This document shows positions 6,430-6,614 of a stretch of DNA of 64,000 nt, one piece after another. The position numbers and the translations under genes are program-made. The notes beneath the pieces were generated by a model. That model saw only the letters and a program-made list of their open reading frames with translations. It was not told the DNA's origin and did not search any database. Each line of letters opens with the position of its first letter. Position 1 is the first letter of the stretch. Source of the stretch: Escherichia coli (GTDB taxonomy: Bacteria; Pseudomonadota; Gammaproteobacteria; Enterobacterales; Enterobacteriaceae); assembly GCF_044324785.1 (NCBI RefSeq), contig NZ_CP172127.1; one strand, given 5' to 3'.

Positions 6430-6562
6430 CTTAGATATCCTTATAAAAGACGATATTTCATTATCGGCAAATTGGCTTTGCGGGAAATCTCCGTTTACGG
6501 ACGTAAAGATTTAATCTATTAAAAACAATGAATTAAAAAATTAAGCTGCTTATTTAATTTTC

Positions 6563-6578
6563 TGGCACGACGGTTGCA
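6563..6578 (+). promoter_or_regulatory. sigma54 (-24/-12) promoter TGGCAC-N5-TTGCA for rtcBA
   Basis: Exact consensus TGGCACGACGGTTGCA, 37 bp upstream of the rtcB ATG, in an AT-rich region divergent from rtcR. Confidence 0.8.
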
Positions 6579-6614
6579 ATTATCAGGACATACCAACGAA
6601 AAGAGAAAAACAAA

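Follow-up and report, generated by a model that had tools for sequence, protein, structure and literature searches.

The sigma54 promoter of the rtcBA RNA-repair operon in an Escherichia coli genome, and a candidate enhancer for its activator RtcR

We analysed a 64-kb stretch of Escherichia coli DNA (the window), and we are almost certain that the sequence at 6563-6578 is the enhancer-dependent sigma54 promoter of the rtcBA RNA-repair operon. It lies in the spacer between rtcB and the divergent gene rtcR, which encodes its activator. This promoter has already been published; it has served as a stock example of the E. coli sigma54 regulon since 1998 and is in itself no novelty. What we add is a three-part architecture that is shared across phyla and a testable candidate for the RtcR enhancer. 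From the sequence come the elements with their geometry, the families of the proteins, and the degree of conservation; sigma54 occupancy, the dependence on RtcR and rpoN, and the ligand come from the literature; and the identity of the enhancer, the exact transcription start, and the use of integration host factor (IHF) are our inferences.

The -24/-12 element and the rtcBA operon

An earlier note on this DNA had described a consensus sigma54 element with exact spacing of its GG and GC doublets, placed 37 bp before rtcB in an AT-rich spacer, and its coordinates are confirmed to the base. The element (Table 1) is on the same strand as rtcB, with 36 nt between its end and the rtcB ATG (6615-6578 = 37), and its extended context, cTGGCACGacggTTGCAat, fits the long sigma54 consensus YTGGCACGrNNNTTGCW. 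The open reading frame (ORF) list and our reading of the sequence agree that 6430-6614 is exactly the divergent rtcR-rtcB spacer (185 bp), as the start codon of rtcR ends at 6429 and the ATG of rtcB is at 6615. The A+T content is 68% in the spacer, 81% in the tract at 6500-6562, and 47% in the whole window.

The divergent gene had been taken for a sigma54 enhancer-binding protein with a GAFTGA motif and a non-canonical N-terminal sensor domain. Indeed, the protein matches the Pfam families PF06956 (RtcR/CARF; residues 2-185, E = 2e-85) and PF00158 (sigma54-interaction, AAA+; residues 187-354, E = 8e-51), contains the GAFTGA motif, and matches the NCBIfam equivalog NF038308 (RNA_repair_RtcR) with 850 bits against a cut-off of 650. 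To judge from these families, the sensor is a CARF-type N-terminal domain and not a receiver or GAF domain. The C-terminal helix-turn-helix (HTH) was read from the sequence alone; no Pfam HTH model matched. The PDB contained no structure of the CARF or the DNA-binding domain of RtcR, and the matches there were to generic AAA+ domains of other bacterial enhancer-binding proteins (bEBPs).

On the other side of the spacer, the stop codon of rtcB (TAA, 7839-7841) directly adjoins ATGATG at 7842, so rtcB and rtcA form one operon. No terminator-like hairpin was detected between rtcA and the convergent gene malT. The operon and rtcR are flanked by glpE-glpG-glpR and, at the opposite end, by malT-malPQ, and a synteny comparison gave the same order, glpR-rtcR-rtcBA-malT, as in K-12 MG1655. 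(RefSeq gene annotation was taken from a 100%-identical stretch of E. coli strain N3; the window does not correspond to the strain N3 record base for base, as one ORF is offset by 2 nt near 520-1126.) The domain architecture of RtcR, the presence of rtcB and rtcA in one operon divergent from rtcR, the synteny with K-12, and the published promoter all identify this as the known RtcR-RtcBA RNA end-healing and sealing system, as the earlier note had recognized. Rfam found no RNA family anywhere in the window at the gathering threshold, so a riboswitch or small RNA is not involved.

The element is conserved both within E. coli and far beyond it. Of 5426 complete E. coli genomes, 4857 contain the rtc promoter region. 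The 16-mer that makes up the -24/-12 element does not vary among six E. coli alleles, whose spacers show differences at about 3% of aligned positions (mean column identity 97%). We also scanned species-representative genomes that encode RtcR, which gave 21 loci, 18 of them with full-length RtcR. In 16 of these 18 loci, the divergent strand carries a GG-N10-GC element (9-11 of 11 consensus positions) 127-161 bp from the rtcR start; among the 16 are four other Escherichia species, Klebsiella, Intestinirhabdus, Superficieibacter, Iodobacter, Accumulibacter, three Pseudomonas, Desulfobulbus, Desulfovibrio, and Desulfogranum. Extra loci that were reached via RtcR homologues agree in 7 of 8 cases (Salmonella, Chitinolyticbacter, Caballeronia, Ralstonia, Niveibacterium, Jeongeupia, and a metagenome-assembled genome). 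Thus, the spacing of the doublets, the intergenic position in the sense orientation, the GAFTGA activator next door, and the conservation of the element are all those of a sigma54 promoter.

Published experiments point to the same element. In K-12, the sigma54 ChIP-seq (chromatin immunoprecipitation sequencing) site OS35, CTGGCACGACGGTTGCA, lies upstream of rtcB and was flagged as confirming a known promoter (PMC4591121); this 17-mer is identical to 6562-6578 of the window. In Salmonella, the orthologous promoter, TGGCACGCTGGTTGCAAT, is bound by sigma54 and is rpoN-dependent (PMC3844500). A fragment of 175 nt upstream of rtcB suffices for RtcR-dependent reporter activity (PMC5175333), and an upstream activating sequence (UAS), an IHF site, and a -24/-12 element have been named for the native rtcBA promoter (PMC9650030). 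If C6577 is taken as position -12, transcription is predicted to start at C6589, with A6588/C6589, or ApC, at -1/+1. This agrees with the published choice of primer, as ApC was the -1/+1 dinucleotide primer for native PrtcBA (PMC9650030).

Several caveats apply to this identification or to parts of it. A perfect TGGCAC-N5-TTGCW occurs once in the 64 kb (both strands), and by chance 0.14 such matches are expected per window, with at least one in 14 of 100 shuffled windows; matches with one mismatch are not enriched (6 seen, 3.8 expected). By itself, the match to the consensus is thus just mildly improbable, and the weight rests on the position, the orientation, the adjacent activator gene, and the conservation. 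In vitro, the native promoter was "very weak", and a nifH core had to take its place (PMC9650030), so calling the element "textbook" holds for its match to the consensus but does not imply a strong promoter. In the same study, full-length E. coli RtcR did not bind tRNA fragments stably and could not be activated with them in vitro, so for E. coli the ligand step is provisional. Finally, the leader of the window's allele differs from that of K-12 by a 2-nt deletion and by substitutions, at about +3 to +8; because these first leader nucleotides differ, the start site for this allele is extrapolated.

Could the match instead be an inert sigma54 binding site, or a chance match, with rtcBA driven by another promoter? 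Besides the frequency of perfect matches in shuffled windows and the weakness of the native promoter in vitro, this idea can draw on the many E. coli sigma54 ChIP-seq sites whose function is not known (PMC4591121) and on reports of some RtcR-independent induction of rtcBA (PMC9650030). However, the element is intergenic and properly oriented, lies a short distance before the rtcB ATG and beside a dedicated activator gene, and is kept at the same distance across phyla. Furthermore, a scan of 6200-6900 found no sigma70-like promoter (nor did it place the promoter of rtcR), and the reporters in the literature require RtcR (PMC5175333) and rpoN (PMC3844500). We consider this explanation extremely improbable, and nothing contradicts the identification of 6563-6578 as the rtcBA promoter.

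The leader variant at 6590-6597, ACA--TACCAACG, is common to Escherichia sp. E1V33, Escherichia sp. MOD1-EC7003, and E. albertii, and K-12, O157, and E. whittamii carry ACAGCAAACAACG at this position of the alignment. An identity of 99% or more to the window over the rtc region is seen in just 2-3 of the 5426 E. coli genomes, and the flanking genes encode common alleles of GlpG, GlpR, and MalT. A rare rtc allele beside common flanking alleles suggests an old polymorphism or recombination at rtc.

Some E. coli have lost the promoter together with the operon. In 566 of the 5426 complete genomes (for example, SCU-124), just about 0.8 kb separates glpR from malT: an internal deletion that begins inside rtcR and ends inside rtcA takes out the sigma54 promoter and all of rtcB and leaves two annotated pseudogene remnants. 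In line with this, 569 of the genomes have no match to the promoter region. By these counts, about 10% of sequenced E. coli are without a functional Rtc system, a point to bear in mind wherever Rtc is considered as a means to antibiotic tolerance. A different rearrangement is found in E. coli LB858871 (locus L008, 3129-5936), where two copies of IS1A split and invert rtcB; the rtcR-glpD segment is gone, and the rtcB fragment now adjoins yzgL/glgP.

A candidate RtcR enhancer and an IHF-like site

Immediately beside the rtcR ATG is a 34-bp array of four half-sites in 10-bp phase (Table 1), with a perfect dyad, CGATA-N6-TATCG, in the array and at its end (6451-6466). Whether this phased GATA/TATC array is the RtcR enhancer is, on the sequence evidence that follows, an even call. 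The array overlaps the Shine-Dalgarno sequence and the leader of rtcR, and its centre is about 140 bp upstream of the predicted start of rtcBA transcription, which is a normal distance for an enhancer. Four 4-nt half-sites with 10-bp spacing, beside the start codon of rtcR, are present in all beta- and gamma-proteobacterial loci that we examined; examples are TATC-n6-GATA-n6-GATA-n6-TATC in Pseudomonas sp. GD03944 and TATC/GATA/TAGC/TATC in Caballeronia. More broadly, the array accompanies RtcR in Enterobacteria, Pseudomonas, Betaproteobacteria, Desulfobacterota, and Calditrichota.

Because we first spotted the pattern by eye, we used separate training and test sets. A 34-nt position weight matrix (PWM) was trained solely on 11 non-enteric RtcR loci, with alignment registers chosen by the analyst. 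Among the 127,934 positions of the window, the top score was at 6432-6465 on the + strand, in the predicted register (15.8 bits; the next best match had 11.5 bits). Of 200 shuffled windows, 7 also had a match of 15.8 bits or more; what counts as evidence from the matrix is therefore where the match lies and not its score. In held-out loci of about 6-10 kb each, the best match was at most 70 bp from the rtcR ATG in 7 of 10 cases: Klebsiella oxytoca, Intestinirhabdus, Superficieibacter, Salmonella, Calditrichia (21.6 bits), Desulfobulbus (20.7 bits), and Desulfovibrio Kf353 (27.8 bits). The matrix failed in the other three, whose RtcR is merely 41-55% identical. Perfect dyads were found in 8 of 13 loci, versus 0.1 expected from shuffles; this pattern was defined post hoc and we give it little weight.

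The 175-nt fragment that functions in reporters (PMC5175333) covers the array except for its first 11 or so nucleotides. The RtcR enhancer was listed as not known ("NK") in a 2016 review (PMC4987338). In the literature that we searched, which did not extend to the 1998 description by Genschik et al., we found mentions of a "UAS" but not the sequence of an RtcR enhancer.

A possible but rather doubtful alternative is that the array is a signal for the expression of rtcR (a sigma70 -10 box, leader, and Shine-Dalgarno sequence) or the site of another protein, and that the true enhancer is elsewhere in 6466-6520. The array touches the rtcR start codon, the region of its first half-site holds the Shine-Dalgarno sequence (TCCTT, or AAGGA on the rtcR strand), and its fourth half-site reads GATAAT on the rtcR strand (6466-6461), which is -10-like, although this is a reading by eye and there is no convincing -35. 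Also, Chitinimonas arctica retains the array beside rtcR without a nearby rtcB or -24/-12 element, and the PWM score by itself is reached in some shuffled windows, as described above. In contrast, dyad symmetry with 10-bp phasing is typical of sites for HTH dimers and not of leaders, and the distance from the -24 element (about -110 to -150) is that of bEBP enhancers. Furthermore, the array co-occurs with RtcR in very distant lineages, where alignment with a Shine-Dalgarno sequence or a -10 box is not required, and 6466-6503, in the part of the spacer where the enhancer would otherwise be sought, is conserved in Escherichia only.

The two readings of the array can coexist, in our analysis, as they do in the autoregulation of pspF, whose enhancer overlaps the activator's own promoter. 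Because the Shine-Dalgarno sequence, the leader, and a possible -10 box overlap with the array, binding of RtcR to it would also hold down the production of RtcR itself, as in the case of PspF. If the array is the enhancer, then it should help with the design of Rtc reporters, with predicting the RtcR regulon, and with the study of RtcR-like activators beside defence systems (CoCoNuTs).

In Chitinimonas arctica (locus L034, 2894-3000), the array-bearing rtcR is divergent from a gene for a Na+/H+-antiporter-like protein; there is no rtcB, rtcA, or -24/-12 element within 3 kb, so this RtcR is an orphan. Within the spacer of our window, the block at 6466-6503, GGCAAATTGGCTTTGCGGGAAATCTCCGTTTACGGACG, is richer in G+C and contains a small palindrome, CCGTTTACGG. 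This block is kept within Escherichia, and Salmonella, Klebsiella, and more distant loci lack it; the block could contain the -35 region of rtcR or the site of a genus-specific regulator. We set aside other short inverted and direct repeats in the spacer, which are AT-rich and are not conserved outside Escherichia.

Between the candidate enhancer and the promoter is the AT-rich tract, which presumably bends to bring RtcR to the polymerase. It contains an IHF-like sequence, AAACAATGAATTA, with one mismatch to the consensus WATCAANNNNTTR. Because matches with one mismatch are common in the window (63 seen, 48 expected), the weight of this putative site comes only from the conservation of its position. 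Of 20 RtcR loci, 12 have an IHF-like site in the same orientation that begins 40-44 nt (or 30-31 nt) upstream of the T of TGGCA, and in 8 of those 12, from independent lineages, it is a perfect WATCAANNNNTTR (Salmonella, Superficieibacter, Iodobacter, Accumulibacter, three Pseudomonas, and Ralstonia). An IHF binding site at rtc is also mentioned in PMC9650030. Overall, by sequence comparison, about 20 RtcR loci from Enterobacteria to Desulfobacterota share a layout in three parts: the GATA/TATC array, the IHF-like site, and the -24/-12 element. A layout with fixed spacing across such distant bacteria is of modest comparative value.

These parts suggest how the promoter might work. The sigma54-RNA polymerase on TGGCAC-N5-TTGCA (6563-6578) would form a closed complex that cannot start by itself, and RtcR would be kept inactive by its CARF-type N-terminal domain. 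When RNA ends with a 2',3'-cyclic phosphate build up, RtcR would oligomerise; the reported ligand is the 5' tRNA half ending in a 2',3'-cyclic phosphate (PMC7790460), and in the literature RtcA and RtcB contribute to this step and feed back on RtcR (PMC9650030). Oligomeric RtcR would bind upstream DNA, in our proposal the GATA/TATC array, and a bend at the AT-rich IHF-type site (6523-6535) would carry it to the polymerase. RtcR would then open the promoter with ATP and its GAFTGA loop, and transcription would start near C6589 to give a single rtcB-rtcA mRNA.

In Accumulibacter, Pseudomonas, and several Betaproteobacteria, the first element after the RtcR-controlled sigma54 promoter is a tRNA-like gene (Table 1). 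These genes score 41-60 bits with the Rfam tRNA model, and ARAGORN assigns them odd anticodons, one of them of 2 nt. They are about 200-260 bp downstream of the -24 element and precede genes for Band_7 (SPFH), zinc-ribbon, and RtcB proteins. We saw no Ro60/Rsr gene among the operon genes of four of these loci (L016, L031, L036, and L037).

A HigB-2-like toxin and other features of the window

The earlier note also pointed to a candidate RNA-cleaving toxin in the same window and proposed that induction of Rtc would be a readout of its activity. The candidate itself is borne out: by homology, this ORF is a RelE-superfamily toxin and a homologue of HigB-2, the V. cholerae protein that it matches best among solved structures (Table 1). 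The Pfam RelE match (PF06296) is marginal, with 27.6 bits against a cut-off of 27, and NCBIfam and PADLOC had no match for the toxin ORF itself. The gene downstream encodes a NadS/HTH antitoxin of 98 aa (NF041265, 76.8 bits against 60). The pair (30125-30797, - strand) is in the toxin-first order and is inserted between envZ and pckA.

The proposed link to rtc fared less well, as the sequence gives neither physical nor phyletic linkage. The toxin pair is 24 kb and about 20 core genes away from rtc, and it is present in 1331 of the 5426 complete E. coli genomes (about 25%, always on the chromosome), versus about 90% for the rtc promoter. As a general notion, the induction of Rtc by ribotoxins has been published before: VapC-LT2, one of the tRNA-cleaving toxins that induce PrtcBA, does so in an RtcR-dependent manner (PMC5175333), and colicin D has been cited as another activator (PMC7790460).

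We think it unlikely that this particular toxin is the physiological trigger of the rtcBA promoter. Cleavage of the RelE type does leave the cyclic-phosphate and 5'-OH ends on which RtcA and RtcB act, the ORF is a clear homologue of HigB-2 with its antitoxin gene downstream, and tRNA-cleaving toxins induce PrtcBA, as noted above. Also, dinJ-yafQ, a RelE-family module, is co-transcribed with the operon in Salmonella (PMC9879122). However, besides the lack of linkage, toxins of the HigB-2 type cut mRNA on the ribosome, and the ligand that has been identified for RtcR is a tRNA half. In Salmonella, YafQ, HigB, and HigB2 are dispensable for activation (PMC7790460, PMC9879122): in the triple deletion, both the accumulation of tRNA fragments and the activation of the operon were unaffected, a result that bears on necessity during DNA damage and not on sufficiency upon overexpression (PMC7790460).

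The second-best PWM match in the window, at 30856-30889 on the - strand, is just upstream of the toxin gene. We rejected it as support for the link, because its score (11.5 bits) was reached in 30 of 200 shuffles and so is at chance level. The site contains a perfect inverted repeat, TATCC-AAAC-GGATA, followed by a G4T7 run, and it may be the operator of the toxin-antitoxin pair or part of the pckA terminator.

Elsewhere in the window, two ORFs for hypothetical proteins (97-516 and 519-1124, both on the + strand) lie beyond glpD, where K-12 has yzgL/glgP. The second is the ORF that is offset by 2 nt from the strain N3 annotation, and its 201-aa product resembles a multi-pass membrane protein; PADLOC had no match for either. 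The strain N3 record also annotates yhgE, igaA, hofN, and aroB as frameshifted pseudogenes (32915-34638, 36749-38883, 43382-43920, and 46867-47954 in the window). Because there are four of these within 15 kb, including normally essential or conserved genes, the frameshifts look more like homopolymer sequencing errors than biology.

Table 1. Features of the rtc region and related loci. Positions are those of the window unless another locus is named.
Feature	Position	Strand	Basis or remark
Sigma54 -24/-12 promoter element, TGGCACGACGGTTGCA	6563-6578	+	GG at 6564-6565, GC at 6576-6577; canonical spacing
Predicted transcription start, C	6589	+	Geometry, with C6577 taken as -12
rtcB leader, 26 nt, with weak purine-rich ribosome-binding region AAAAGAGAAAAA	6589-6614	+	Sequence
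IHF-consensus-like site, AAACAATGAATTA	6523-6535	+	One mismatch to WATCAANNNNTTR; starts 40 nt upstream of the T of TGGCAC
AT-rich tract (81%) between candidate enhancer and promoter	6500-6562		Composition; contains the IHF-like site
Candidate RtcR enhancer (UAS), TAGA-n6-TATA-n6-GATA-n6-TATC	6432-6465		Inferred; four half-sites in 10-bp phase
rtcR, sigma54 enhancer-binding protein, 532 aa	4831-6429	-	ORF, Pfam, NCBIfam, RefSeq annotation of strain N3
RtcR GAFTGA sigma54-contact motif, residues 265-270	5620-5637	-	Computed from translation
RtcR Walker A motif, GPTGAGKS	5764-5787	-	Computed from translation
rtcB, RNA 3'-phosphate / 2',3'-cyclic phosphate ligase, 408 aa	6615-7841	+	Pfam PF01139, E = 1e-133; annotation
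rtcA, RNA 3'-terminal phosphate cyclase	7842-8861 (RefSeq start 7845)	+	Pfam PF01137 and PF05189
HigB-2-like toxin, 105 aa	30480-30797	-	PDB HigB-2 5ja9 (V. cholerae), E = 1e-23, residues 3-100
tRNA-like gene, locus L015	1781-1853
tRNA-like gene, locus L016	3565-3710
tRNA-like gene, locus L031	2624-2688
tRNA-like gene, locus L036	2625-2688
tRNA-like gene, locus L037	2600-2673

Comparison with known systems

The closest relative is the rtcBA promoter of E. coli K-12, a sigma54 promoter with divergent rtcR that was described by Genschik et al. in 1998, as cited in PMC9650030 and PMC5175333. The window has the same genes and synteny, the same 17-mer (CTGGCACGACGGTTGCA), the same ApC dinucleotide, the IHF-like site, and the upstream dyad. 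Compared to K-12 (the derivative DH1), the window's allele is about 95.5% identical over 6380-6680; its spacer is 185 bp instead of 188 bp and there are a few changes in the AT-rich tract, but the -24/-12 core is untouched. The feature in the window is an allelic copy of the K-12 promoter, that is, a member of the system and not a mere analogue.

The promoter for rsr-yrlBA-rtcBA in Salmonella Typhimurium (rsrp) has the same activator, the same type of promoter (TGGCACGCTGGTTGCAAT in LT2), and a divergent rtcR, and RNA damage, acting by way of the CARF domain, induces it (PMC3844500, PMC7790460, PMC9879122). The operon of the Salmonella strains that have been studied additionally contains rsr (Ro60) and two Y RNAs, yrlB and yrlA, and its transcription continues into dinJ-yafQ, whereas the operon in the window has just rtcB and rtcA. 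Another Salmonella enterica contig has an rtcBA arrangement like that of E. coli, with TGGCACGGCGGTTGCA and a perfect IHF consensus.

A more distant parallel is pspF-pspABCDE of E. coli, where the gene for a bEBP is likewise divergent from its target, a sigma54 promoter, and an IHF site separates enhancer and promoter. In both systems, a product feeds back on the activator: PspA on PspF, and RtcA and RtcB on RtcR (PMC9650030). In contrast to RtcR, with its CARF-type RNA-sensing domain, PspF is without a sensor domain and is controlled by the binding of PspA. Finally, the overlap of the enhancer with the activator's own promoter is established for pspF, and for rtcR it is what our candidate enhancer would imply.

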